NCBI GenBank assembly: GCA_030248215.1
Contig: JASANG010002570.1
Coordinates: 186,001 to 250,000, forward strand
Origin: Enoplolaimus lenunculus
Taxonomy: Eukaryota
Length of the DNA stretch: 64,000 nucleotides
Direction of reading: 5' to 3'
Positions 3,001 through 52,500 of this stretch are shown here, piece by piece (within the stretch, counting starts at the first letter, position 1; every line of letters starts with the position of its first letter). The position numbers and the translations under genes were made by a program. The notes below the pieces were generated by a model. The model was not told where the DNA came from and did not search any database. It worked only from the letters and a program-made list of their open reading frames with translations.

Positions 3001-6000
3001 TAAGAATGGGAGAGGATTTTGTTTTAGTCCCTCCGTAAGGTCTAACTAGAGTTTGTAAAATAAGCGGCCCATGTAAAAATCAGGGGCGGCCCAAAAGATC
3101 ACGGGCGGAACATTTTTACCTGCGTGGGACTGCAATGAGTAAGCTTAAGCTTTAGACTAATTGTTTGCTTTGGTTTAGGCTTAGGCTTAGGCTTAGGAAT
3201 ATGCTCATTCTTACGCTTAGGCTTAGGCTTAGGCTTAGGAATATACTTATACTACTGTTCCGCCCCTGTTTATTTACATGGCCAAAGAAACAAACGCAGA
3301 AGAACGGCGTAGACTTTTCTGAACAGAATTTTAATCTATAAATAATACTTCGTAACCAATCAGTTCTGCCCAAAAGAAAGAATATAAAAAAGAAGGGAGT
3401 TGAGTCCGGTGATGCAGCTTCAAGATTGGTGCCCCTGTTTCGCTGAACGTCTGCTAGGTCATTGGCTCCGATAACCAGTGACTGAAACTTTATCGTTGTT
3501 ACTCGCGTTATTGATTTGATCGATCACGAACTTATTTCTTCTGCTACGCTAGATTAACGTTTAAAGATGTCCTTTCAACCGTACCGCTTTAACTTTCATC
3601 GTCGCCAAGAATTACGTATTGCTTCGTGGAATGTGCGAACTTTATTACCGTCTGGTGCTACTGATATTGTTTCACGTACTCTTTCCCGACATGACATTAA
3701 CATTGCTTGCTTATCAGAAACTCGTTTTCCTGACAGTGGTTGCAAACCGATATTACCATGTTTTAAAACTGACAATCGTCGCCAACGTTTCACCGACAGT
3801 AACTTTCGTTATCCGTGTACAGTTTGTTTGGGTAATGCAACTCGTGGCTCAATTGGTTGTACGAAGTGTGGACTTTGGTGTCACTATACGTGTGCTGGTT
3901 TCGACTGTATACGCACTGCCCGTGCCTCTGCTGCCGCATGGAAATGCATCGTCTGCCGTGATGAAGAAAAAGCGAACGAAGACCTGCCAAAGAAGAGCTA
4001 CACCTTGTACTGGTCAGGACCGTCCGATGGAAGCGGAAATCATGGGGTGGGGATCGCCCTAGAACAATCGTTGGCAAGTTGCGTCAAAGCGTACGACTTT
4101 ATTAGCCCCCGAGTGATGCGCATCCGTGTCAAGTGCCGTCCCTTTAACCTGTGCATTGTGTCCGTCTACGCTCCTACAGAAACCTCCACAGACGCCGTGA
4201 AAGATCAGTTCTACAGTGAAGTCGACACTGCACTAGCCGGCGTTGCCAAGTCTGACTTCCTGATCGTCGCCGGCGACTGGAATGCCCAACTCGGTCCGCG
4301 ACACCCATGTGAAGGCAGCATGCTGGGCCCGTTCAGCCTGGGCACCAGAAGCAACAATGGAGATCGGCTAGTCTCGTTGATTGGTCAACAACGGCTGTTC
4401 GCCACGAATACGGGATTCAAGCATAAGCGCCGCCATCTTGCCACCTGGATGTCTAATGCCGGGAATGCCGAGAACCAAATCGACTTCATCCTGGTGCGTG
4501 ACCGATGGAGAACCTCAGTGCTGGACAGCAGAACGTTCTGGGGCAACGAATGGAGCTCCGACCATGGTCTTGTCCGATGCCGTGTGAGGATTCGCTTCTC
4601 CGCGTCCAAATCCCGCCCGATGAAGAAGCGATACGATGTCGATCGTTTCAAGGTCGTGGAAACGCGAGAAGATTTCCGGCAGACCTATGTCCGTGTCGGA
4701 ACCGCCCACAATGTTGATGCAGATGTGGAGCAGAGGTGCGCACTCATGGCCACAAACCTGAACCAGGCCTGTTCCGAGACGCTCGGTGTCCGCCGCATCA
4801 ACCGCTCTGGTTGGATCTCAAACGAAACGATATCACTGATGGACCAGCGAAGAAGTCAGCCAAAGTGCAATAGACTACGAAATGCAGTCAGACGAGCAGT
4901 TGCTGGCGACCGTGAAGTCATGTGGACCCGATTCGTGGTCGATGCAGAGCAAGCAAACAGGGTCGGTGATTCGCGAAAGCTGTTCCAGATGGTCAAGTCC
5001 CTGAACAAGAAAGGCTGTGCCCCCCCGACGCTGAAAGACCGAAACGGCATTTTGATTGATGGGAAGCAAGCGAAGCTAGACAGATGGGCTGAGCACTTCA
5101 AGGAGTTGCTTAACCGACCAAGCCCAGCAAACCCACTGTCCGCCGAAGACCTTGGCACCCCGATCCCCGCCACCTGCATTCGCGTGGAGCCGCCTAGCCT
5201 GGAGGACGTCAAGAAGGCAATCAGATCGACCAGATCAGGAAGAGCAGGTGGAGAAGATGGTCTACCGCCCGAAGCCTACAAATACGGTGGTGAGCCGGTC
5301 GCCACTGACCTGGTGTCCCTTTTCGAAACTATATGGCGCAGCGAGTCGATCCCATCCGACTGGGAGATCGCCGAAGTTGTCCCGCTGTTCAAGAAGGGCG
5401 ATAAGAGCATGTGTAAGAACTACCGGGGAATCAGCCTCCTCGACATCGCGTCCAAGATTCTAGAAGCAGTCCTGATGGACCGCATCAAGCAATGGCGCGA
5501 CCCGCTTACCCGTGAGAACCAAGCTGGGTTCCGGGCTGGAAGAAGCTGTGCCGACCAGATCTTCACCCTGCGCCAAGTAATTGAAACACGGAACGAATTC
5601 GGGCGAGCAACATTTATTGGCTTCGTCGATTTCGCAGCAGCCTTCGATAGCATCGATAGAGATAGCCTGTGGCTGATAATGGCGGCTTCTGGAGTCCCGC
5701 AGAAGATTATATCGATGTTCCGGGCCCTCTACCGATCGACGAAATGCCGTGTAGGGGTATACGGTACCGCGACCGACACCTTCGAGATCCACACCGGTGT
5801 GCGTCAGGGAGGCATCTCTTCACCCATTCTCTTCAACTGGTGCGTGGATTGGTTGCTCAAAGTGTCCTTCGATGACCACGATGACGGGGTCCTGATGGGT
5901 AGCGAAACCGATGACAGCTCCGTCCTGTCCGACCTGACGTTTGCGGACGACATAGCCGTGCTCGCTGAAAGCCCAGAGCAGCTCCAGAGAATGTTAGATC

Positions 6001-9000
6001 GGCTGGATGAGAACGCGAAGCGCATCGGCCTGGTGATCAGTACGGCGAAGACGAAGATCCTGTGCTGTGGCACCGAAACAAGACCGAAAATAAGCATCGC
6101 CAGAGAAACCATTGAAGTGGTGGTCGACTTCACCTACCTTGGCAGCTCAATATCCTCTTCCGGCGATGGGTCTACCGAAATCCGCACCAGAATTGCAAAG
6201 GCGTACAACGCCATGCTGGCGCTGAAAGCTGTGTGGGGAAACCGGAACCTGTCAAAACAGCTGAAACGCCGGATCTACATGGCCTGCGTTCGACCGGTGC
6301 TCCTCTATGCCTGTGAAACGTGGCCGATCAAGGCTAACCACGAGCGGCGACTGGATGCCTTCGACCACCAAATGCTGCGCTGGATACTGCACGTCTCCTA
6401 CCGTGACCACGTTACAAACGTCGAAGTTCGCAGGCAAATGGGCATCAAGGAAACCGTTTCGGAGTCGATCCTCAAGCGGCGGCTATATTGGTTCGGGCAT
6501 GTCGCGCGTATGGAAACCGTTCGCCTACCGTTCAAATCTTTGTTCCACCCTATTCCGGCTGATGAGGGATGGCGTCGGCCCTTCCGAGGAGTGCGCAATA
6601 CATGGCAACGCAAGCTGTTCAAGGATGTTAACTGTCGACCTGTCCATGATATCGTAAACCGAAATGCGGCTGTTTTCAAACGTGACTATCTGACTCTTTT
6701 ACGACAATTGGCTATGGACAGAAGTGGCTTTGTGTTATTGGTTGATAAAATCGCGAGCTGCAAATGACCCTATGGGTTACGCAAATGATGATGATGATGA
6801 TGAAGTATAACATGGGAAGATATAAAAGTAAATAACAGTCCGTAACCGAATAGCAGGTGCTTACCCTCGGAGAGACAAATTAAATATCAATCCAACCCGC
6901 CCACATTTCAAAGCATGGCTACGACCCTGGGTAGGATCAAAGAGCAACGCATGTGAGTTATGTGTATTATACAAAGCTTGGTAAGTGGCATACTCCTGTC
7001 TAGAGTCATCATTACACGGTTCTTACGTTCTAAATTATAAATGTCAGGGGGTAAATTTGCTTGCTCGCCCCAATGTTTAAGGGTTGCGCTTTGGTTTTTT
7101 GACCCGCGCGGCATCGCTGACTGTAGCTGTGATAAATTTTTTTGCCATATCAGATTCAGAATTTCCACATTTTAATCGTATAGGCCTATACTTGTTGTGA
7201 TATAAAAATTCTGCATCAGTCATCTATTAGATTATTTTGGATAAAGTTAACTTGTCGATAATTGATTGTAGTTTAGCTTTACAGAAGCAAAAAAGATTGC
7301 CAATTTGTTCAAGCGACGTTTTTGAGAATTGTTTCCAGCCAACACACACCCTAAATCAATATTACACTTTTTAATATAAATTATCCGTATAATCACAAAT
7401 TTTGTATATAGTTTTTGATTCCGATTCCGATTCCGATATAAATTTGCTGTTCCGATTCCGATTTCGGTATAAATTTGCTGTTCCCATTCCAATTCCGGTA
7501 TAATCCAGTTCCGCTTTGCACCCTGAAGTATAGTGCAACCCTAAGTGAACTGAAGTCTTCTCAATAATAAAATCGATATTTTCAGATTGAAAGAAGCGTT
7601 CAAATCGAAAAAAGGCAGCAATTTATGGTCAAGTATTGAAGCGACCGTAAGCAAAGACGTTGTCCGAACTGACAGACGAAATCCATTCTACGAGGGTGAC
7701 AACAATCCTAATGTTGATATCATGAGGTGAACATTTCAATAATTTTTTGGAACCAGAAGTGGGGGCGTAACGTCGAATTTTGATACAGAACGCACTGACA
7801 TTTTATTGAATAAAGTTTTATTTCAACATCATTGGGATACGGTAGGTGTAGCCAAATGTAAAGACCATTGGAATAGGCTTCACAAAATTGTTGGCCAGTG
7901 TAAAGAACAGGGGCGGAACAGCACTGTAAGCATATTTCTAAGCCTAAACCTAGGCCTAAGCCTAAACGTAAGAATGAGCATATTCCTAAGCCTAAGATGC
8001 CTAAGCCAAGCAAAAAAAATTAGTCTAAAGCTTAAACTTACTCTATTGCAGTCCCACAGAAAAACGCTCCGCTCCCTAATCTGTACATGGGCCAAATTGT
8101 TAATAAAACTTACAGTCGTAGCCCAATAAGAATGAAGGAGAAAAACGAAATATTGGCCGTGTTTTATAGACATATCCTAGTCAACTTTGCATGTCAGTTT
8201 CGGGAACTCGGCTACATCCAAGGTATGTCGGATTTGCTCGCTCCAATTTTATTCGCTCTTCGCGGCTCAGAATCGGACGCTTATTGGTGCTTTGTGGGTT
8301 TGATGAAGCGAACAACGTTTGTCGTTTGTTCACCTGTCCAGTCACCGGCCAGTTGCACGACAGCATCACAGCCAATCAGAACGCGAGGTTTGCCGCAGTC
8401 ACCACCAGTACATCAAGAAGCTGGACAAGTATCTGAAATTGATACAACGTCAAATTCGATGGATAAAAATTTGGTAAATATTACTTTAGTTTTTTTGCAT
8501 GTGTAAAATTTAGGATGTTTAACGGTTAAATTTCAGCTTCGAAACCAAGAAATAGATGATGTGAGCAGGGTGCGACCCGAAATTTCGGTTCCGGTTCTGG
8601 CAGTATTTTCACATTTTGGTTCCGGTTCCTGTAAATTTTTACCGAAAATAAAAATTTCGGTATTAAAACTTGGTTAGTGGAAATTGAGATGTTTTGCTAA
8701 AAATGACAATAAAAATTACATAGACTTCATTAGTATAGTATGCAAACCTTGACAATCGCCGAAAATAAACAAACCATCGAAGGTAGATTTTGCTTCTGTG
8801 GATTATGGAGATGTAAACTACAGCAGATAAAGTGAAAAGCTATCTCCAACTAGGGATATTTCCGCCAACAATATTGCAAAAAACAATTAAAATTAATTTT
8901 TCGGTTCCAGTTCCGTTTCCGGCCGGTTCAGGTAAATTGTAATTCCGATTGCAGCCTGGGTGTGAGAATATTTCTTACAGGAATTGAAAATTAGGCAACT

Positions 9001-12000
9001 TTCAATGTTTTTGATGTCGGAAATTTTTGTAGGATATTTAATTGGGGGAGAGATTGCAACTTGAAAGCCCTGAATTGGTGTTAATAGACGTATGATAGAC
9101 AGATTTCGTTTAACGGTGAATAAAATATAACATAGAATTATGTTGATGCTGTCAAACAGTTTTAGCTTGGGCCGTTGGGGCACGGTAATTACATACATTA
9201 ATTATTAATAAAATGGTTGTTTGCCATACCACTGTTAGGTATAAACTCGTTTAGGCCAAATGAAGTGTCCTAACAACTTTCAATTCCTCAATCAGGTCTA
9301 CGCTTCCTGCCGTCCTAACTACAAGTTATGTGTGTAGAAGCTCAAATATTTTGTTATATTTGAAATAACATTAAGTTTGAACAACCTAAATTTTCATTGT
9401 AAATTTCGGTGAGTTCATTTTAACTCAGAATGGCTTGAATCTACTCAGAGCTGTGAGCTCTGAATTAAGTCTTTCAGGGTTCAGAATTCTGAATTGATTG
9501 AATGCATTCTAAATTAATTAATTAACCCAAAATTAAATCAGCGGACAGTGAGTTCGGGGTTACTGTTATTAACTCAGAAATAGCCAAAAATAACCAATTC
9601 TACTTCTGAGTTAATTAATATACTCATCTGAATTTACAGTGTATATCTTTGCCAGGAAATCTTGCGCGAACTGTTACGGCTGATGTACCCAGCATTTCAC
9701 GAGTATCTATTCACGTTGAGTCGAAGTCACCTAAGCTGTGTCGATGCATTGGAACTTTTGTTTACCCATCGTTGGATCCTTCTATGCTTCAAACGCGAGT
9801 TCCCAGAAAAGGTTGGTCAGCGCTCACGAATTGTTTTGTTTGATTTCCGCTTCTCGAAAAATATTACAGTTGAGTTGAAAAATTCAGTTCAAAATTGAGT
9901 TGAAGTGTTCAATGGCAAAATAGACGAGTTCGGGTTAACAAGCAGCCTCTAAAAGACTCAGAAAGACGGAGTATATACTCATATTATCCGGCAATGTGAT
10001 TACTAAGTAAATAATAAGCATCATGAACTATTAATATATACATGTCATGCTTGTGTTAGGATGTTTGACAAATATGAAAATTTACTCTTTGCTGAATTTT
10101 TCCTGGAATCATTTTTAATCAGTTTTTAAATTTGCAAGCATGACAGTAACCCAAAATGATTACGGGAAACAAACCATGACCCGATGCCTTGTACTGGCTC
10201 ACCTTCCTTACTATTGTTGCTAGCGTCGTTACAAATCAATAGGCAAACTTTTATCGATTGAAACTTCTTAGATGTAAGGGTGCCGACCGTCTCCGTACGG
10301 CACCGTCCGTCACAGTGCGGTATCATACGTGAATTTCGCACTACGATACCGTATGGTGACGGACGGTGACGGACGGCGCTGTACGGACGACGGACGGCGC
10401 TGTACGGGCGACGGACGGCGCTGTACGGGCGACGGACGGCGCTGTACGGGCGACGGACGGCGCTGTACGGGCGACGGACGGCGCTGTACGGGCGACGGAC
10501 GGCGCTGTACGGGCGCGACGGACGGCGATGTACGGGCGACGGACGGCGCTGTACGGGCGACGGACGGCGTCGCACCGTGACGGACGGCGTTGTACGGGCG
10601 ACGGACGGCACCGGATGGGTAACGGACGACGCCGAACGTCAACAAATGCATAGCGCAACACAAAATCTACAAAACCAAGAACTGTTGACCTGAAATATGG
10701 TCATTAAATGCTAAAAGTCGCAATTAATTGCGAATTCTTCTCGATATTTAAGCAACGCACAGTCTACATTCTTGCAAACAAATCAAAAAAACAGCCTATT
10801 CCTAAACAATGAAAGACTATAAGTAAATTGTTAGAATTTTTCTGTTTGAACCAACAACTTTCAGGCAACAACAATTAACCTAATTAGAACAGTTTTGGAA
10901 AGTCAAAACTGTAAATTAAGCATATCCCTAAGGCTAAGCCTAACCAGTCATAAAGTATAAAACCTAAGCCTAAGCAAAAAAATATGGTTAAATTAAGCAT
11001 ATCCTTAAGCCTAACCCTAACCATTCAAAAAGTATAAACCTAAGCCTAAGCAAAAGATATGGTTAACATCTGAGCCTATTGTTGTGGAGTCTGACCAGAA
11101 AACGGAACGGCCCCAAAAGTAACATGGGACAGTAGGGTCAAAGACCTTTGACAGAGCATCCGTTTTATTATTATGAAACGAGAAAAAATCCCTTTTCACA
11201 AAAATGAAAACTTGCTATAAAACTTGGATACCTATAGTTTTAAGGTCAAAATCCCAACGTGGACTTAAAGTATTTGGCCCATGTATAGATGGGCGGAACG
11301 TTTCTCGGTGGGACTGCAATAGAGTAAGCTTAAGCTTTTAGACTAATTTTTTGCCTGGCTTAGGCTTAAGCTTAGGCTTAGGAATATGCCCATTCTTACG
11401 CTTAGGCTTAGGTTTAGGCTTTAGGCTTAGGAAAATGCTCATTCTTACGCTTACGCTTAGACTTAGGTGTATGCTTAGGAATACGCTTATAATACTGTTC
11501 AGTCGCAGGTTCTTTACATTCGCCAAGTATTTAAATATAGTTTTCATAAAATTTGAAATGAGTACGCAAAAGCATTTCACCGCTGTTCAAACATATACGC
11601 CCTGTAGGCCGTCTCGATACGACTAACAATTCCCATTAACAAGGCTTGTTTTCAGCAGGCGATGGCTATCTGGGAATCGTGTTGGTCATGCACGGAAACG
11701 CGATATTTTCATCTGTTCATTTGTCTCGCAATTATGATGGCGTACGGTCAAGACGTTATTGATCAAGCGTTGGTCCACGATGAAATTCTGCTTTATTTTG
11801 CATCACTTGCAATGCATATAGACGGCGAAATGGTGCTTAAAAAGGTGAGTTCGTAATACAACTGATCCGTTTGGTTCAGGTGTGACCGCTACTATTTTGA
11901 CCCTGTTATAGGTCTGCACGCTAAGCTCAAGCATAAGTCTAATTATCAGCCTACTGTTGCGACCGGAATAAGAGTCGGTTATGAAAGAGCGGATTCGATT

Positions 12001-13186
12001 TGGTGTTAAAATCAATAGAAGTTTGAGTTTTGTCTAAAAGAACGAATATAAAAATAAGGATGTTGGGTTAAACTAAACATGGGAAGACTTGAAAATAAAT
12101 AACAGTCCGTTAAAGGTTTCGTCGATAACTAACACCAGGACAAATGCATGTGCTACCACAATATTGGGTAGCAACCTACAAGCATGGTGCAGTGGAGAAA
12201 ATTTTAGCCCTTTCACTCATAGAGTATACTATGAGCAACTAAATACAATAATGTACGAGCATGACACACACTGTGAGCAGCGTTTAACGTTTATAACATA
12301 TATGCGCAGTGCAAAATCTCCACAAGACGTGAGAGCCTACTCGGGCTCGAGCGTCAAGCTCCTATAGCTCAGTGGTCATCATAAACGCCTCCCACCCGTG
12401 AGACTGGGGTTCGAATCTTACCTTGAAAATACATATCATATGAAACTGAAAATATTCATGTGAGAAAGGGTTAAATAAACCGTTCAATGTAAATTCCAAT
12501 GAGTTGATTAATCAATTCAGCTAGCGAGTTGGTTATTTCTGAATTAATACCAGTAAACATTAACTCACTCTGAGTTGATTTGATTCTCACTCTGAGTTGA
12601 GCTGACGCTGGGTGAGTTGATTAATTAACTCAGAATGAATTGAATCAATTCAAGTTTCTGAGTTCTGAAAGTCTTAACTCAGACTGAGTGATTCAACTTT
12701 CTGAGTTAAAATCAACTCACTGAAATTTACAGTGTTGCAGCTTCTAATTTTTCTTCGCTAAAAACTTTTTTGCTCTATATATTGCTTAATACAGGACCCT
12801 CTGGATCATGCCGCTGTACCCTCGTGGTGTATATATTTTGGCCTCACGTAGGACGTCATCTCGTTTCTGGATCAGCACATGCACCCCTGAATACTCCAAT
12901 GAGAAGTAAATTCTTATACAAATTTGGTATCGATTGCTGTTTACAGGCTCGCGGATTACTGTACCAATTTATACGACGCGACCGAATTCCGTGCACCCTT
13001 AAAGACGTTTGCAGTCAACTGCAGTCTTGCTCAATGCAGTTTGCGCAACAAAACGCAACAGTTTGCAACCGGAGCGATTCAGTGAACAATTCATCAACAC
13101 ATCACGGATGGGAAGGTGGAAGCACTCCGAAAATTGAATGCGTTCAAGTTCACGATGATAAGAAACCCTGCTGTGGAGCAAATTAA
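84..13186 (+). CDS. TBC1D16: TBC1 domain family member 16-like Rab GTPase-activating protein, spliced; 5' end lies upstream of the window
   Basis: Phase-consistent GT-AG exons: 84-265, 1099-1278, 2186-2334, 7586-7726, 8170-8473, 9656-9811, 11656-11844 (NAGNAG acceptor, alternative 11659), 12947-13186 (stop). Peptides MRSLRLF..GQLVIATPESRYKILHFHHGGLDKL, AIFFGGVEPSLR..WPFLL, KDVVRTDR (R-finger), GYIQGMSDLLAPI (Q-finger), LLFTHRWILLCFKREF, YFHLFICLAI and ARGLLYQF resemble TBC1D16. Confidence 0.9.
819..1067. mobile_element. TTAA-flanked MITE (piggyBac-like termini) with internal tRNA-like segment
   Basis: TTAA|CCCTTTCTCACAT ... ATGTGAGAAGAGG|TTAA; internal GGATTCGAAC (B-box on the minus strand); subterminal hairpin GAGTTGCC-TGTA-GGCAACTC. 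Confidence 0.7.
2497..2645. repeat. Short fold-back (palindromic) element
   Basis: CATGCGTACACCAGGTGACTTTTGAG at about 2514 is inverted as CTCAAAAGTCACCTGGTGTACGCATG at about 2599-2624. Confidence 0.65.
3066..3283 (-). mobile_element. Telomeric-repeat MITE (GGCCCATGT TIR family)
   Basis: TIR GGCCCATGTAAA..CAGGGGCGG / CCGCCCCTG..TTTACATGGCC; internal (TTAGGC)n. Confidence 0.75.
3406..6802 (+). mobile_element. Full-length RTE-clade LINE in the TBC1D16 intron 2335-7585, same orientation as the host gene
   Basis: About 160-bp 5' UTR, intact ORF, very short 3' UTR with a small stem-loop (TGACCC-TAT-GGGTTA, 6765-6779) and an (ATG)6 tail at 6785-6802. The 5' boundary is inferred from an empty-site-like repeat copy at about 12036-12110. 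Confidence 0.85.
3567..6767 (+). CDS. Non-LTR retrotransposon single ORF (1066 aa): AP endonuclease with inserted PHD finger, plus reverse transcriptase; RTE clade
   Basis: APE motifs WNVRTL, ACLSETR, YTLYWSG, GVGI, VYAPT, GDWNA, NQIDFIL, SDHGLV. RT motifs NYRGISLL, QAGFR, FVDFAAAFDSI, GVRQGG.SP.LF, FADD, FTYLGS. RTE-type C-terminus LLYACETW..RRLYWFGHVARM. No stops or frameshifts. Confidence 0.95.
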   Translation: MSFQPYRFNFHRRQELRIASWNVRTLLPSGATDIVSRTLSRHDINIACLSETRFPDSGCKPILPCFKTDNRRQRFTDSNFRYPCTVCLGNATRGSIGCTKCGLWCHYTCAGFDCIRTARASAAAWKCIVCRDEEKANEDLPKKSYTLYWSGPSDGSGNHGVGIALEQSLASCVKAYDFISPRVMRIRVKCRPFNLCIVSVYAPTETSTDAVKDQFYSEVDTALAGVAKSDFLIVAGDWNAQLGPRHPCEGSMLGPFSLGTRSNNGDRLVSLIGQQRLFATNTGFKHKRRHLATWMSNAGNAENQIDFILVRDRWRTSVLDSRTFWGNEWSSDHGLVRCRVRIRFSASKSRPMKKRYDVDRFKVVETREDFRQTYVRVGTAHNVDADVEQRCALMATNLNQACSETLGVRRINRSGWISNETISLMDQRRSQPKCNRLRNAVRRAVAGDREVMWTRFVVDAEQANRVGDSRKLFQMVKSLNKKGCAPPTLKDRNGILIDGKQAKLDRWAEHFKELLNRPSPANPLSAEDLGTPIPATCIRVEPPSLEDVKKAIRSTRSGRAGGEDGLPPEAYKYGGEPVATDLVSLFETIWRSESIPSDWEIAEVVPLFKKGDKSMCKNYRGISLLDIASKILEAVLMDRIKQWRDPLTRENQAGFRAGRSCADQIFTLRQVIETRNEFGRATFIGFVDFAAAFDSIDRDSLWLIMAASGVPQKIISMFRALYRSTKCRVGVYGTATDTFEIHTGVRQGGISSPILFNWCVDWLLKVSFDDHDDGVLMGSETDDSSVLSDLTFADDIAVLAESPEQLQRMLDRLDENAKRIGLVISTAKTKILCCGTETRPKISIARETIEVVVDFTYLGSSISSSGDGSTEIRTRIAKAYNAMLALKAVWGNRNLSKQLKRRIYMACVRPVLLYACETWPIKANHERRLDAFDHQMLRWILHVSYRDHVTNVEVRRQMGIKETVSESILKRRLYWFGHVARMETVRLPFKSLFHPIPADEGWRRPFRGVRNTWQRKLFKDVNCRPVHDIVNRNAAVFKRDYLTLLRQLAMDRSGFVLLVDKIASCK
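7893..8093 (+). mobile_element. Telomeric-repeat MITE with perfect 8-bp TSD
   Basis: TSD AAATTGTT on both sides; TIRs; internal GCCTAA repeats. Confidence 0.85.
9395..9641. mobile_element. CACTGTAAA-terminated MITE (AACTCAG-rich family)
   Basis: Ends (CA)TTGTAAAT...ATTTACAGTG. Related copies at about 12484-12733, 45030-45278, 46543-46788, 58621-58872 and 59097-59348. Confidence 0.65.
10362..10615 (+). repeat. GC-rich 21-bp minisatellite (GACGGACGGCGCTGTACGGGC)n
   Basis: About 10-12 tandem units; related GACGG-rich sequence at about 15625-15700 and 54730-54880. Confidence 0.9.
11276..11524 (-). mobile_element. Telomeric-repeat MITE with perfect 8-bp TSD
   Basis: TSD AAGTATTT on both sides; (TTAGGC)n core. 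Confidence 0.85.
12205..12474 (-). mobile_element. Related TTAA/CCCT MITE subfamily with tRNA-like A/B boxes
   Basis: Ends ATGTGAGAAAGGGTTAA; TAGCTCAGTGG (12365) and GGTTCGAATC (about 12408) on +; sister copy in the opposite orientation at about 43780-44045. Confidence 0.65.
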
Positions 13187-14509: not shown

Positions 14510-15173
14510 TTAAATTTTGAAAGTACATTCCTAAGTGTAACATTGTATTATCGCTCAAGCTATTGACACAAGACAAATAAACGTTTAATTCAACGGATAA
14601 TTGCAGTACCGGATATATATCAGTAACGAAGGGCGGCGGAGCTTGGGTTAAAAACAAATAACAGTCCGTAACCGAATAACAAGGGGGGTGGTACCCTGTG
14701 GAGAGGCCAAATAAATACCAGTCCCCCTCTTATTCGGGTCACTACAGTAGGCGCCAGTGTATAGAATAGGGCCGAACAGCAGTACATGTATATTCCTAGG
14801 TCTAAGTCTAAGCCAAGCCAACGCGTACGAATGAGCTCAAGCCAAAACCAAAAAATTAATCTTGAAGCTTTAGCTTATGCTATTGCAGTCCCGCAGTTTA
14901 ACGTTTCGCCCCTGAATGGATCGTTGTAACGAATGAACTATTATGCTTTACACGGTTGGGCTGAACTATATTTTCGCTTGAAATATACGTGTAGGAAACC
15001 CCGTCAGAGCGTGAACGGATCAAAACATTCCGGTTGCAAGCATTGCTTCAAATTTCAGACCGAAAATCGCTCATTCGAACATAAAATCTAAGAGAACAAA
15101 TTTATTCTTGATACACGTCGAACTGTATCACAAATAAAATTAATTTCAAGACATCATTTTAAATGTGCAGCAC

Positions 15174-16020: not shown

Positions 16021-19000
16021 CTACGACCATATGTCTTGAAGATATCTTCCTTCCGATTTCAGCGATTCTAAATATTCTTTCGCTTCGTTCAAACTTGAAC
16101 CTAAAAACCCCAAAATGAGATTAAACAATCCGCCATATTTTGCCGTCTGACAAAGCAGTATACTGCTGAAAATTCATGCTTCAAGTAGCGCATTACATAA
16201 GGTTTGGTCCGTAACTTATTTATAATTAAGGCGTTAACAAAAAATTGCTGGATAGTCCGGCTAATTTGAACATACTGTTTTCCAAAGTGTAACAGGTGAC
16301 CCGTCTCCGTTTCCGGTAAAAATCGGTATACGTTTCCGTTTCTGTTACAGAAATAACGGAAATAGTTATTTTTATGCTCAAAACTTGTTTATAAGTTACG
16401 TATATCTCGCAATTTTTCATTACAGATATACTGCAATTGTTCAAAATGAAATAAATATTACGAAATTCTTTCTTCAAAATTTTACAAACACCGGCGAATA
16501 TTTGCACGTCTCAAATGTGTTGGCAGAAAAATAGAAAAACGTTTGAAACTTTCATACCTCAATATCTGATTTTTGTTTCCGATTCCCTTAGCTCGATCAC
16601 TATCCATTTCCGTTGCCGTTATTACCATCTGTTTACACCCTGCTCATTTCTAAATAAAGAGTGATTTGAAACTAATATTAATCAAAGTTGCGAGGCCATT
16701 CGATTTTAAAACCATCAAAAGACCTAATCCCAAACAAACTGACAATCCTTTGGCATTCGCACTGCCTTAGGTTTAGTTTGCACTAGTCTGACTAAAATTA
16801 AGCTTACGCTTACGCATACTCTTAGCCTCCTGTCCGTGCGAAGTCTGTTGTTGTTGTTGTGCGTTCGAACGTCTGGACGCTAGGGCATCATTGACGGCCG
16901 GTGAAACGCCCGCTATGTTCCAACATTTTATACACGTTGGTCGGGCGTTTCCATAGGTCGTCAACCGTCGCGTTTGCGATAAGGAACTTCAATCAGTACG
17001 GCGTAAGTGCGGGGCAGACTTGCACAACTCGTCGGGCTTCCTCCGGATGAAGAGGAGGTACCTTCCAAGTAGCCGACAGGCCCTTACTTCGAGATCTGTT
17101 TAAGTACATTGCCCCTTTAACCTTAATTTATATCTCCTTACCTTTATGCTCCTGTAATATTTCAATCCACGCATTATAAACGTCATTTGCCATTCCGGAC
17201 GCATCTCCACAAACATACAGCCGACATCCGTGAGTGCTGTTGCTCGATAGCAGCTCAACTAACCGTTTACCATAGATTTTCATTGCATTTTGAACGTACC
17301 CAGTAGTAACTGTATAGTTTTCTGGCAATTCAACACCGTTATGCAAATGAGATTCCTGTAGCAGCTTAGCTATGTCATTAACGTTTACGTTTTCGTTCTT
17401 GACCGAATCTGTTGAATTTTTTGATCCGTTTGATGCTACTGTACCTTGCGCCAGATCAGCCGCCGCAGGATCTTGAGGTACGTCAGGCCGTGAGAAACTC
17501 ACACTGAGATGTGTTAAAATGTTCGTTTTCAACAAATGTTCCAATTTGTTCCTAAAATACATAATATAAGTGTAATCATTCAATAACTACAACGTTATTC
17601 TTCCATTGAAATTTTGCATTTATACATCTAAAAAATCAGAGTGGTAACCTCTGCCGAAAATAACGAAAAAATAATACAAACGTGTTTTGCGTCATTAGGT
17701 CAAGTATGACACAAGGAATCTGGATCTACAGCATTTTTTGCTTTTCCTCGAAAAGTTAAATATTTGCCCTAAGTCGTTCACTTATAACTAAGTCGGCAAA
17801 GAAGCTTAATAAAGACATTATCACAAACTACAGACACAAATTTGCGAGCAATAATTCTGGCTTACCTGTATATGTAGTCATATCTGGCATTCCGGCATCC
17901 GAAAAACAACCATCGTTCCGTTGCGAGTTTCTGGTCAGTCTGCTCGCCCAAAATACCGTCTAACTCTTCTAAAAAACCTAAATACGGTGCTAAGCCAGTC
18001 CCAGGTCCAATTAGCACCATTGGAGTCTCAGCTGCATCCATATGATCGTCTGGTAAACTAAACGATGTCCGCTTTTTCAAAAACACATCAACAAGTTGTC
18101 CTGGCTCGATTGTGTTACACAAATATCCGCTGGACAACCCATTTCGATCGTAAAACCTTCCACCAGTTAGGTCAGCAGGTATCTGAGTCCGATTGAGAAC
18201 AAACCGAATTTTGCCATAGGGCAGTGCATCATCTGTCGCTGTCACTGAACCGGTAGTATCAGTTGATAATACTGACAGAGAACTGTCTGTCCTGGCGCTT
18301 GCGTCTTCGTTATCTGACACTGTGGGAAAATTTTGCAATTTTCTCACTATTCTAGTCGTTTTTCTTACGGTGCTAGACGTAGTTCCACTGGTCGATGACG
18401 CGACTGAGTACGGTCGTGGCTGTAGTCTAGGCAAAAGTTCGACGAACCGGGCGACAGGTACTCGAGACGAGACAATAGATGGAAATGCGTGGATGACGTC
18501 CAAGAGGCCAAGTCTTGGTTTAAGAATCAAACGAACAAAATCTGCTGACGCTGAAGTTGCACATAAACGAAGCATTGCAGATTTTTCGCTGTTCGATGTG
18601 GCATAATCAGCCAATGCCCGAAACAATGTCTAGAAAACCTTAGACAAACGTTAGTTCAAGTATTTTACAGTGACATCTGCCAGAGCTTGAATCAATATAA
18701 AGCAATGCGAAAAACGGGATCAGTTACGGATCAAAATGTCCATGTTACTTTAAGGGGCGTAAAGGTTTTTGGTGGGTCTATAAATTCTAGATTACAATTT
18801 TTTGGTTAGTCTTAGGCTTAGGTTTCGGAACACATTTCTGTAACGCTTAGGCTTAGGCTTAGGCTTAGGAATACGCTTAATCTACTGTTACGCCCCTAAA
18901 AGTAACATTGGCCGATCAAAATGTAAGCGAAAAAACGCAGTTATTTTTTGAAAACAAATTTTTTTCTGAACAAAGCAACAACAGAACTAATAAATTAGTT

Positions 19001-49500: not shown

Positions 49501-52500
49501 TTGGCTCAAGTGTTCATTTCGACACGAATTGCGACCAAAAACACATATTCTATTAGCAAATTAGAATCGACTTGCTTTGTAGTATATTTCAGTTATAAGT
49601 TAAACAACAATTTAGGTTTAAGACACCTTTGTGGCTAATGTTAGCGTATCATTGTTCGACATTCGACTTGTGTATAGCACCTATCGACAGTTGGCTGTCC
49701 ATCTTGTAGCTTTCGAACTGGTCACAGTGCAAAAGTTAAAATTTCAGCACATTTTTCGACTCTGAATAAATTCTATTTCTGTGTCAATTTTGAGATGTGA
49801 AATTGGAACAATTCATCAATTTCGGTGTCAATTTTGAAATAAAAAAATTGGCATGAGTTTGTCTCAGTTTGAAAGCCTATCGCTAACCGGTAATTCAGTG
49901 ATATACGCGCATTTGAAAATAAGGACACTAAACTTATTACAATTTTAACCATTATTTCAAGGGAGATCGCGGACGTGCAGGAGTGCCAGGAATCCCAGGT
50001 CCAAAGGTTGGTTTTCAAGCGTTAGTCGTTTACCTTTGTTTCATTTGACCTTTTCCAAATTTAGGTTCACAATTTTTTTGGTGTAAATTTAGTTTAATAT
50101 TTTAGTAATTTTTAAACCAGTGGAACAATAACTGGTTGACAAAGTACACCAAAGTCGTCTAAAAAATTCTGAGTCTAAAATTGCCTAAAAACAGTTGCAT
50201 TTATCATAAGTTGGGACGAACTCGGTTGTACGAGATGGGCGGAGTAAGAATATTTGGCCAATGTAAATAACAGGGGAGGAACAGTATTTTAAGCATATTC
50301 CTAAGCCTAAGCCTAAGCCTAAGCCTAAGCGTAAGAATGAGCATATTTCTAAGCCTTAGCCTAAGCCTAAGCCTAAGCGTAAGAATGAGCGTATTCGTAA
50401 GCCTAAGTCTAAACCTAAGCCAAGCCAAAAAAATTAGTCTCAGCTTAAACTTACACTTTTCTAGTCTCACAGAAAAACGTTCCGCCCCTGATTTTTACAT
50501 GAGCCGAATATTTCTACAAATGGGTAAGGATAATAAAGTTTACTACCAAAATTTTAAACCTCATTTTTAAATTGTTTAAAACGGAACGCAACCGACATAC
50601 TAAAAATGAATTTCGCACAGTTTCCTTGTGTTACTGCAATAATGTATTACTCATAAACCATGGTGCAACCGGAGGTCTGCGTCCGGTTCCGGCAGAAAAT
50701 CGACGTCCGGATCTGGTTATGGTAGAATTCAATGCGCAAGGTTCTGGCGATTTCCGTTGTGAAATTTCTAGTAATTTTTACAAAAATTACAAAGTTCGGT
50801 GCGTAGTATTAAATACTATTTTAACGGCTGTATTTTGGCTTCATCACCGACTTTAGCGAGGTTTGTCGACCGCCTGCTTGACGTCCTGTATTTTTTGACT
50901 TCCGGTCCCACGCGTCCAGAAACAGACTACATTGAACAAATTGAAACATTTCTTTCAGGGTCCTACAGGACAAGATGGCCTTCCTGGACATAAAGGAGAT
51001 ACGGTATTTTTGGTTTGATTGTACTTTTTGTGAATGTTTCGATCAAAGTCCTCATACTTTCGTATATGTGAGATAAGATCCGGATGTAATGGTATCTTGA
51101 TTTTAGTTTTTCCGGCCCATGAAAAGATCCGGGGCGGAACGTTCTTCTGTGGGATTGCAATGGACTGAGGTTAGGCTTTAGACCACGTTTTGTTTAGGTT
51201 TAGGTTTAGGTTTAGGGTTTGGTATCAGCCCTTTCTTAAGCTTAAGATTAGGAATATGCTAATACTACTGTTACGGCCTTGTTCTATACATCGGCCGTTT
51301 TTAAATTATAATTGAAAACACATCAAAGAGTCTTCTTCACACGTTTTTCTGTACATCAAAGAGTCTTCTTCACACGTTTTTCTGTACATCAAAGATTCTT
51401 CTTCACACGTTTTTCTTTACATCAAAGATTCTTCTTCACACGTTTTTCTTTACATCAAAGATTCTTCTTCCCACGTTTTTCTTTTCATCAAAGATTCTTC
51501 TTCCCACGTTTTTCTTTACATCAAAAATTATTCTTCCCACGTTTTGCTTTACATCAAAGATTCTTCTTCCCACGTTTTTCTTTACATCAAAGATTCTTCT
51601 TCCCACGTTTTGCTTTACATCAAAGATTCGTCTTCCCATGTTTTTCTTTTCATCAAAGATTCTTCTTCCCATGTTTTTCTTTTCATCAAAGATTCTTCCT
51701 CCCACGTTTTTTTCACAAAGATTCTTCTTCCCACGTTTTGCTTTACATCAAAGATTCCTCTTCCCACGTTTTTGTTTACATCAGATTCTTCTTCCCACAT
51801 TTTTCTTCACATCAAAGTTTCTTCTTCCCACGTTTTTCTTTACATCAAAGATTCTTCTTCCCACGTTTTGCCTTACATCAAAGATTCTTCTTTCCAGGTT
51901 TTTCTTTGGCAAACTGCTTTTACAGCGACATTCAATTGGTTTATGCAAATCAGTCATTTCACTGCGTATTTACTTATACTTGCAGAGATAATCATCGACA
52001 AACGATCCTCGACAATGTACAATTTCGCAGGGTGGGGCACTGTCGGTGAACGTGGACTGGTTCCCATAAGAGTAGGGGGTCGGGCAAATAGCAGCGGCGC
52101 TGGGTTCTTTAATCTTTGATTTGGTAGAGAAATACCAATTAGCATACCTTACATTTAAACCAAAGACAATTTTTGTTCTTTCTAATTATAATTTAGAAGG
52201 CATTTTAAGAGGGACTTAACTAAATTGCGGTATTCGTTTTTAGGGCCACCGAGGACCACCAGGCGTACCTGGCGAACCTGGGGCTTTTGGAAAACCGGTA
52301 AGCTGGACGTGTATTTTGGGTACGAGTGGTTGTTGTGGTTGTGCTAATAGCATTTGTGTTTTGGAACCAGGCACGTAGCCGGCTCACTTTGCAATGGAGT
52401 CTGAAAATTTTTTAGGACGGGCATACAGTTGTTTTCGATGACATACGAGCAAGGTTGAAAATTTTCTGTGGCAATGCAAAATACTTCCAGGGGATGCTGA

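Follow-up and report, generated by a model that had tools for sequence, protein, structure and literature searches.

PHD-bearing LINEs of the CR1/L2/Crack type were reportedly the subject of work by Kapitonov and Jurka in 2003. PHD fingers are common in the ORF1 proteins of CR1/L2 elements, and in some cases ORF2 or a single ORF begins with one (available sections of PMC4120745); they are also placed between a 2A peptide and the APE endonuclease (available sections of PMC3708506). The PHDs of retrotransposons have been called widespread and likened to chromodomains, for which targeting is known, while targeting by the MBD of CopiaMBD is proposed (PMC6673714, in the part available). For RTE elements, the accessible text on RTE-2_OV of octopus (PMC9115989) and on the plant An-RTEs (PMC5850137) describes no PHD insert in the APE. 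Likewise, no PHD inside a LINE APE was described in the literature searched, much of it available in part, a statement that Repbase, Dfam or closed papers could overturn. PHDs on LINEs are already known; a PHD inside the APE fold is, as far as this literature goes, a new arrangement. We describe it here from an RTE-type element of Enoplolaimus lenunculus, found in a window of 64 kb (the whole stretch of DNA that was analysed; Table 1). The PHD-in-APE architecture is real and conserved, and of this we are all but certain.

Table 1. Features of the PHD-bearing element, in positions of the window
Feature	Position	Strand	Basis or remark
RTE-type element, whole, ~3.4 kb	3407..6803	+	both ends approximate (within a few bases); flank match to empty repeat copy
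5' untranslated region, ~160 nt	3407..3566	+	a typical separate ORF1 would not fit
Single intact ORF, 1066 aa, APE(PHD)-linker-RT-C-terminal region	3567..6767	+	no stop or frameshift
APE endonuclease, N-terminal part (N22, metal-binding E51, strand SGCKPI before the insert)	3621..3752	+	Pfam, AlphaFold, alignment
Expanded loop aa 63-143: linker helix, PHD finger, exit helix	3753..3995	+	AlphaFold model, spacer comparison
PHD finger aa 82-130, C4HC3, Y82 and W104 at cage-wall positions	3810..3956	+	Pfam, PDB sequence matches, model
APE endonuclease, C-terminal part (YTLYWSG to SDH; Y201, D237, N239, D306, H333)	3996..4565	+	Pfam, structure match
Reverse transcriptase (RT) domain, aa 611-859, FADD at 792	5397..6143	+	Pfam RVT_1
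3' tail of ATG/TGA triplet repeats	6784..6803	+	read from sequence

The element and its surroundings

Two traits of the RTE clade are present in the element: one ORF with APE and RT, without a separate long ORF1, and a 3' tail of short tandem repeats. The assignment to RTE is our assumption, made from this architecture and from motifs known for the clade; no relative from the aa 15-200 search or the full-length profile search described below carries a clade label. The flanks of the element (left to ~3405, right from ~6800) correspond to a host repeat that is present at 12026-12110 as a single uninterrupted copy and looks like the empty site; the left flank matches it at a BLAST E of 9e-5, and related pieces of the repeat family that hosts the insertion lie at 14649, 54189 and 61952. 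No target-site duplication of at least 8 bp without mismatch was found at the element ends, where 8-mers with one mismatch are the best candidates, and the duplication may be very short or decayed. Self-BLAST of the 64-kb window revealed one copy of the element only.

Matches to exons of a TBC1D15/17-like RabGAP lie on the plus strand at ~1200-1280 (E only 0.66) and ~8100-8310 (E 2e-10); the element probably sits in sense orientation in an intron of such a gene. An abundant, dispersed repeat of ~200 nt with TTAGGC units occurs on both strands (3094-3290 and 7891-8082, and e.g. 11291, 37417, 50253, 56310, 61141 and 63310). TTAGGC is the telomere motif of nematodes, and repeats rich in it would fit a nematode host. 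TTAGGC-containing inverted arms around the element were considered as the terminal repeats of a composite element and rejected, given that the repeat to which they belong is scattered through the window. Other features noted are exons of an FAD/NAD-binding diflavin reductase on the minus strand (17131-18629), presumably methionine synthase reductase-like, a palindromic MITE-like inverted repeat at 2515-2625 (read by eye), and tandem-repeat arrays at ~10130-10700 and ~51300-52100 that give spurious long ORFs.

Along the first 165 codons of the main ORF, the +1 frame (3568-4062, plus strand) is stop-free and hydrophobic, with a best 19-aa Kyte-Doolittle mean of 2.16 and an ATG at 3631; this frame has no Pfam match. 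Two types of synonymous shuffle put the probability of finding no stop at 0.05 and 0.003. In the main ORF, third positions over the same stretch have a strong excess of T (62 T to 25 C vs 140 to 331, p 5e-13), and other stop-free +1 stretches of ~128 and ~131 codons are present further down the main ORF. This frame may represent an overlapping ORF of membrane type that has stayed hidden, or it may simply result from the T bias.

A zinc finger within the endonuclease and its carriers

In the protein of this element (P0001), the Pfam domains are Exo_endo_phos, which extends over the insert (aa 19-333), RVT_1 (611-859) and PHD (84-130). The preliminary description had claimed a PHD finger inside the endonuclease domain of an intact ORF, and this agrees with 1066 uninterrupted residues and a finger located between Glu51 and the YTLYWSG strand; all eight C4HC3 ligands that it listed (C84, C87, C98, C101, H106, C109, C127 and C130, nt 3816-3956) are found where it put them. 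It had further expected an Exo_endo_phos profile split by a PHD. The spanning endonuclease match appeared as predicted, but on the insert of P0001 alone PF00628, the only zinc-finger family listed, reaches E 2.7e-4 and 21.3 bits, under the 24-bit cut-off, which is cleared in the relative P0156 (24.3 bits). The possibility of a RING was likewise considered at the outset: no RING family matches P0001, P0002, P0155 or P0156 up to E 1, and the His is the fifth ligand and not the fourth, as in the C3HC4 pattern of RING. The best PDB sequence matches to the finger are the PHDs of Pygo2 and Pygo1 (E 5.5e-5), and the Foldseek and Z matches given below are also PHDs, which upholds the original identification.

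The AlphaFold model of aa 12-348, made with an alignment of 50 rows, has a mean pLDDT of 94.9, and ten-residue blocks across the insert range from 80 to 94. The insert, made up of a helix, the finger and the exit helix, is bordered by strands at aa 57-62 and 145-150. The model matches the endonucleases of L1, TRAS1 and R1 and the ExoIII/APE enzymes with a Foldseek E of 3e-12 and Z 22-24.6 (L1 EN variant 2v0r: Z 24.2, rmsd 2.7, 226 aligned; TRAS1 EN: Z 24.0), and the predicted EEP fold carries the catalytic N, E, Y, D-x-N, D and DH of an APE-type endonuclease. Model residues 68-127 align with the BPTF PHD at Z 6.4 (rmsd 2.2, 57 aligned), a value in the range where chance matches occur, and the Z of 5.2-6.4 for the insert against the PHDs of BPTF, MLL4, TAF3, MLL3 and Pygo is modest for a small domain. 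A model of the insert only is weak (mean pLDDT 50), with PHDs as its top Foldseek rows (best E 0.06). In the full model the finger is predicted to fold as its own unit between the strands that flank the insertion, with the active site left intact. Structure prediction had been proposed at the start as a check, and it puts the finger in the expanded loop aa 63-143 of a predicted intact APE fold. The catalytic motifs and the RT, described from the beginning as intact, are so: each of the four finger carriers introduced below has N22, E51, Y201, D237, N239, D306, D332 and H333, and RVT_1 covers aa 611-859. By profile alignment the insertion site corresponds to about K55-W59 of L1 EN. The DNA-contact loops of L1 EN are aa 117-120 and 193-202 in the available part of PMC8565326; because the K55-W59 equivalent is absent from them, the graft probably lies off the cutting cleft.

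A search with aa 15-200 against 1.84 billion representatives yielded 271 matches at E <= 0.001, of which 150 were listed. Among these best 150 of 271, P0002, 44% identical to P0001 over its whole length, is the sole one to align in a single stretch across the insert. Another match, P0014, starts within the last part of the finger; P0155, from the same cluster, is a full-length protein that includes the finger, and P0156 was found by a profile of the insert. The intact carriers are P0001, P0002, P0155 and P0156, the latter three 44-51% identical to P0001 and with the same insertion site, which shows that the insert is kept in diverged members of the family, a point on which the first reading had been made to depend. 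A word-index protein search with P0001 aa 15-200 had no match among 459 candidates, although relatives exist; as the index misses members, four carriers is a lower bound. A full-length profile search (92 matches) retrieved P0156 alone of the three known relatives and no further carrier, and in metagenome contigs, scanned with P0155 as well as with the insert profile, no locus could be confirmed. The same-site finger in three independent elements at 44-51% identity leads us to reject a chance in-frame event in one copy or an assembly artefact, for which the single copy in the window might speak and whose probability we consider negligible.

The length of the spacer from the Glu51 motif to YTLYWSG was measurable in the 232 of 245 gathered proteins that had both flanking motifs; this set consists of search matches to the element, near-duplicates included, and is not a random sample of RTEs. 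The spacer has 89-91 aa in the four carriers (91 in P0001). In the remaining 228 proteins it has 4-26 aa (median 12), the nearest sisters, P0157 and P0158, having 23 aa; the net insert therefore amounts to ~68-79 aa. The assertion that the two motifs are elsewhere only a few residues apart does not hold for this range, and in particular not for the 23 aa of the sisters.

Both trees, each midpoint-rooted, recover the four carriers as one clade: the APE tree, calculated from the part after the insert only (52 rows; rows covering <150 aa and P0152 left out), with a support of 99/90, and the tree of the RT region (49 rows, namely the most similar of 101 usable and a few distant ones; P0014 and P0154 dropped as near-copies) with an SH-aLRT of 96. 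Because this clade nests among many rows without insert, a single, ancestral gain of the finger is the simplest reading of the trees. The PHD lineage is small and old. A composition break at the insert edges, as after recent capture, was looked for and rejected, since third positions are T-rich in the N-terminal APE and the PHD alike (Fisher p 0.81). The best outside matches of the four-member PHD profile among the gathered proteins are PHDs borne by transposable elements, P0061 (38.6 bits), a LINE-type protein with a 2A-like motif followed by PHDs, and P0151 (33.7 bits). The matches suggest a LINE as donor, and we infer that the finger probably came from a pool of PHDs already on other LINEs. 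In a protein-cluster atlas, clusters combining PHD_Pygo with Exo_endo_phos were found (best 0.91, 166 shared features). The atlas does not show the order of their domains; they may correspond to LINEs of the known type with an upstream PHD, or could hide further cases inside the APE.

Conservation of the finger and its possible role

The eight zinc ligands are invariant in all four carriers, and the linkers that flank the finger share 15-30% identity among them. Judged from this alignment, conservation of the finger is beyond chance, with every ligand retained despite so low a linker identity. Invariant columns among the four make up 29% of the PHD, 11% and 0% of the two linkers, 34-35% of the APE and 46% of the RT; at non-ligand positions the identity of the PHD (0.34) is lower than that of the APE (0.54) and the RT (0.61).

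The K4me2 cage of Pygo1 has W366, Y341 and D352 as walls and V350 and A356 as base, E360 and I357 are also needed, and the histone face of Pygo is acidic (PMC2726290, available part). The carriers possess two aromatic walls only, Y/W/W/W at 82 and W/W/Y/W at 104, and the assignment of aromatic-cage residues in the preliminary description is sustained in so far as Tyr82 and Trp104 align with Y341 and W366 and are aromatic in all four. Small base residues (S/A/S/A) and I/I/L/V match A356 and I357, and an aromatic divider, Trp in this element, stands two residues before the His as in readers of H3K4me2/3. The acidic lip or Arg2 pocket of such readers is lacking: A91, at the position of Pygo D352, is invariant, position 99 (Pygo E360) is T/T/S/R, V350 is deleted, and aa 80-132 are basic, with net charges of +5, +6, +8 and +6 in the four carriers. 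The absence of an acid after the third Cys, first noticed in this element, thus extends to Thr, Ser or Arg in all four. According to the accessible text of PMC3241642, readers of H3K4me require between two and four aromatics and often, though not always, have an acid in the Arg2 pocket, RAG2 being without it; neither Pygo nor RAG2 has an acidic Arg2 pocket, yet both bind H3K4me (PMC2726290, PMC3241642, both in part), which leaves room for H3K4me binding by the finger. Loss of the D352 and E360 equivalents and the basic finger speak against a plain H3K4me3 reader.

Our preferred reading, tentatively held and a little short of an even chance, is that the finger tethers the element to chromatin via its pocket, helped by DNA contact. 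The protein-RNA complex of the element would be held to chromatin near the cut site: the aromatic pair would accommodate a methylated lysine, for instance H3K4me, and nucleosomal DNA would be gripped with the aid of the basic surface. Together, pocket and surface would lengthen the residence of the nickase on certain nucleosomes and in this way bias, without dictating, the start sites of target-primed reverse transcription. That a LINE lineage has equipped its nicking enzyme with a methyl-lysine reader and picks its insertion sites by histone mark appears doubtful to us. The gathered set contains 228 relatives without the insert, which therefore is not needed for RTE mobility in general.

The basic charge of +5 to +8, the invariant Ala118-Arg119 and Lys126 of the carriers and the loss of the acidic pocket residues could be those of a nucleic-acid clamp that binds target DNA or element RNA and assists nicking or the transfer to the RT, without specificity for any chromatin mark. 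A precedent is the basic VIN3 PHD superdomain, which binds DNA and RNA weakly and does not bind H3 (PMC9640981, available part), and the related PHD inside the RT of P0151 suggests that several places near nucleic acid will do. However, an electrostatic clamp would not obviously need the aromatics at the Pygo cage walls, which are kept in all four carriers with swaps of aromatic for aromatic only, and we consider this explanation rather unlikely. By analogy, the finger might bind a non-histone protein, either a host factor or the element's own protein part, to assemble, regulate or shield the complex: its nearest solved relatives, the Pygo PHDs, possess a second face for protein binding, e.g. 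of BCL9 HD1 (PMC2726290, in the sections available), and the helix after the His-Cys pair keeps the Ala-Arg motif; we regard such a partner as distinctly unlikely.

The finger may, on the other hand, be a tolerated passenger in a length-tolerant loop, whose ligands persist solely because the endonuclease would be damaged by an insert that does not fold. The loop indeed varies from 4 to 26 aa in relatives, most relatives are without the insert, and non-ligand positions of the PHD are less conserved than the enzyme cores. Yet a clean deletion would restore the ancestral loop, and no finger-less member of the clade was found, all four retaining the finger; surface aromatics are moreover kept across ~50% divergence. 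A mere passenger is, in our estimation, quite unlikely.

With regard to the chromatin tether, PHDs of retrotransposons have long been proposed as chromatin readers, with no direct test cited in the literature covered, which was available in part. The finger studied here shares a small, well-modelled domain with the nuclease, and the close sisters without finger offer a clean with/without comparison for the question whether a PHD steers LINE insertion. The case also points to a loop of the LINE endonuclease that has taken up an entire folded domain while the catalytic residues were retained, a matter of interest for engineering retrotransposon-based gene insertion. Most descriptions treat ORF2 as structurally constrained (PMC4120745, available part), and the PHD-in-APE lineage is a lasting exception to this constraint.

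Comparison with described elements and PHD fingers

As in RTE-clade elements, one ORF with APE and RT is combined with a short 5' UTR and a triplet-repeat 3' tail (PMC9115989, PMC5850137, available sections), but the APE is here split by a PHD. Plant An-RTEs have target-site duplications of 8-20 bp (PMC5850137, in part), whereas none was found for this element, and the zinc finger of octopus RTE-2_OV is a C2H2 finger outside the enzymes (PMC9115989, in part), in contrast to a PHD within the APE. With the CR1/L2/Crack LINEs the element shares a PHD on a LINE protein, at times on the same polypeptide as the APE (PMC4120745, PMC3708506, as far as available); in those elements, which belong to different clades, the accessible accounts place the PHD in ORF1 or upstream of the APE and not within its fold. 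The earlier generalization that LINE PHDs occur mainly in ORF1 of CR1/L2 is correct in that they are common there, but in the same partial sources they also lie upstream of the APE in ORF2, and one is found inside the RT of P0151.

The RTE-like protein P0151 resembles the carriers in that the same kind of PHD (aa 742-787, before the F-x-YLG motif) is inserted in a catalytic domain of an element with a single ORF. This domain is, however, the RT, P0151 forms a distant branch in both trees, and the four carriers are without an RT insert. If histone-mark-guided insertion were true, the two cases together would amount to an independent recruitment of the same reader by RTEs into two different catalytic domains.

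Among PHDs, those of Pygopus (PDB 2xb1, 2vpd; PMC2726290, available part) are the best sequence and Foldseek matches, and the positions of Y341, W366, A356 and I357 are kept; unlike them, the finger has V350 deleted, Ala in place of D352 and no E360, and is basic instead of acidic. The integrase chromodomains of chromoviruses and the MBD of CopiaMBD likewise represent modules of chromatin-reader type on the integration enzyme of a retrotransposon (PMC6673714, in part). Those are LTR elements with an appended module, whereas the module described here lies within the APE and its role is predicted; if insertion is indeed guided by histone marks, the element would provide a natural chromatin-guided nickase and a non-LTR counterpart of the chromoviruses.
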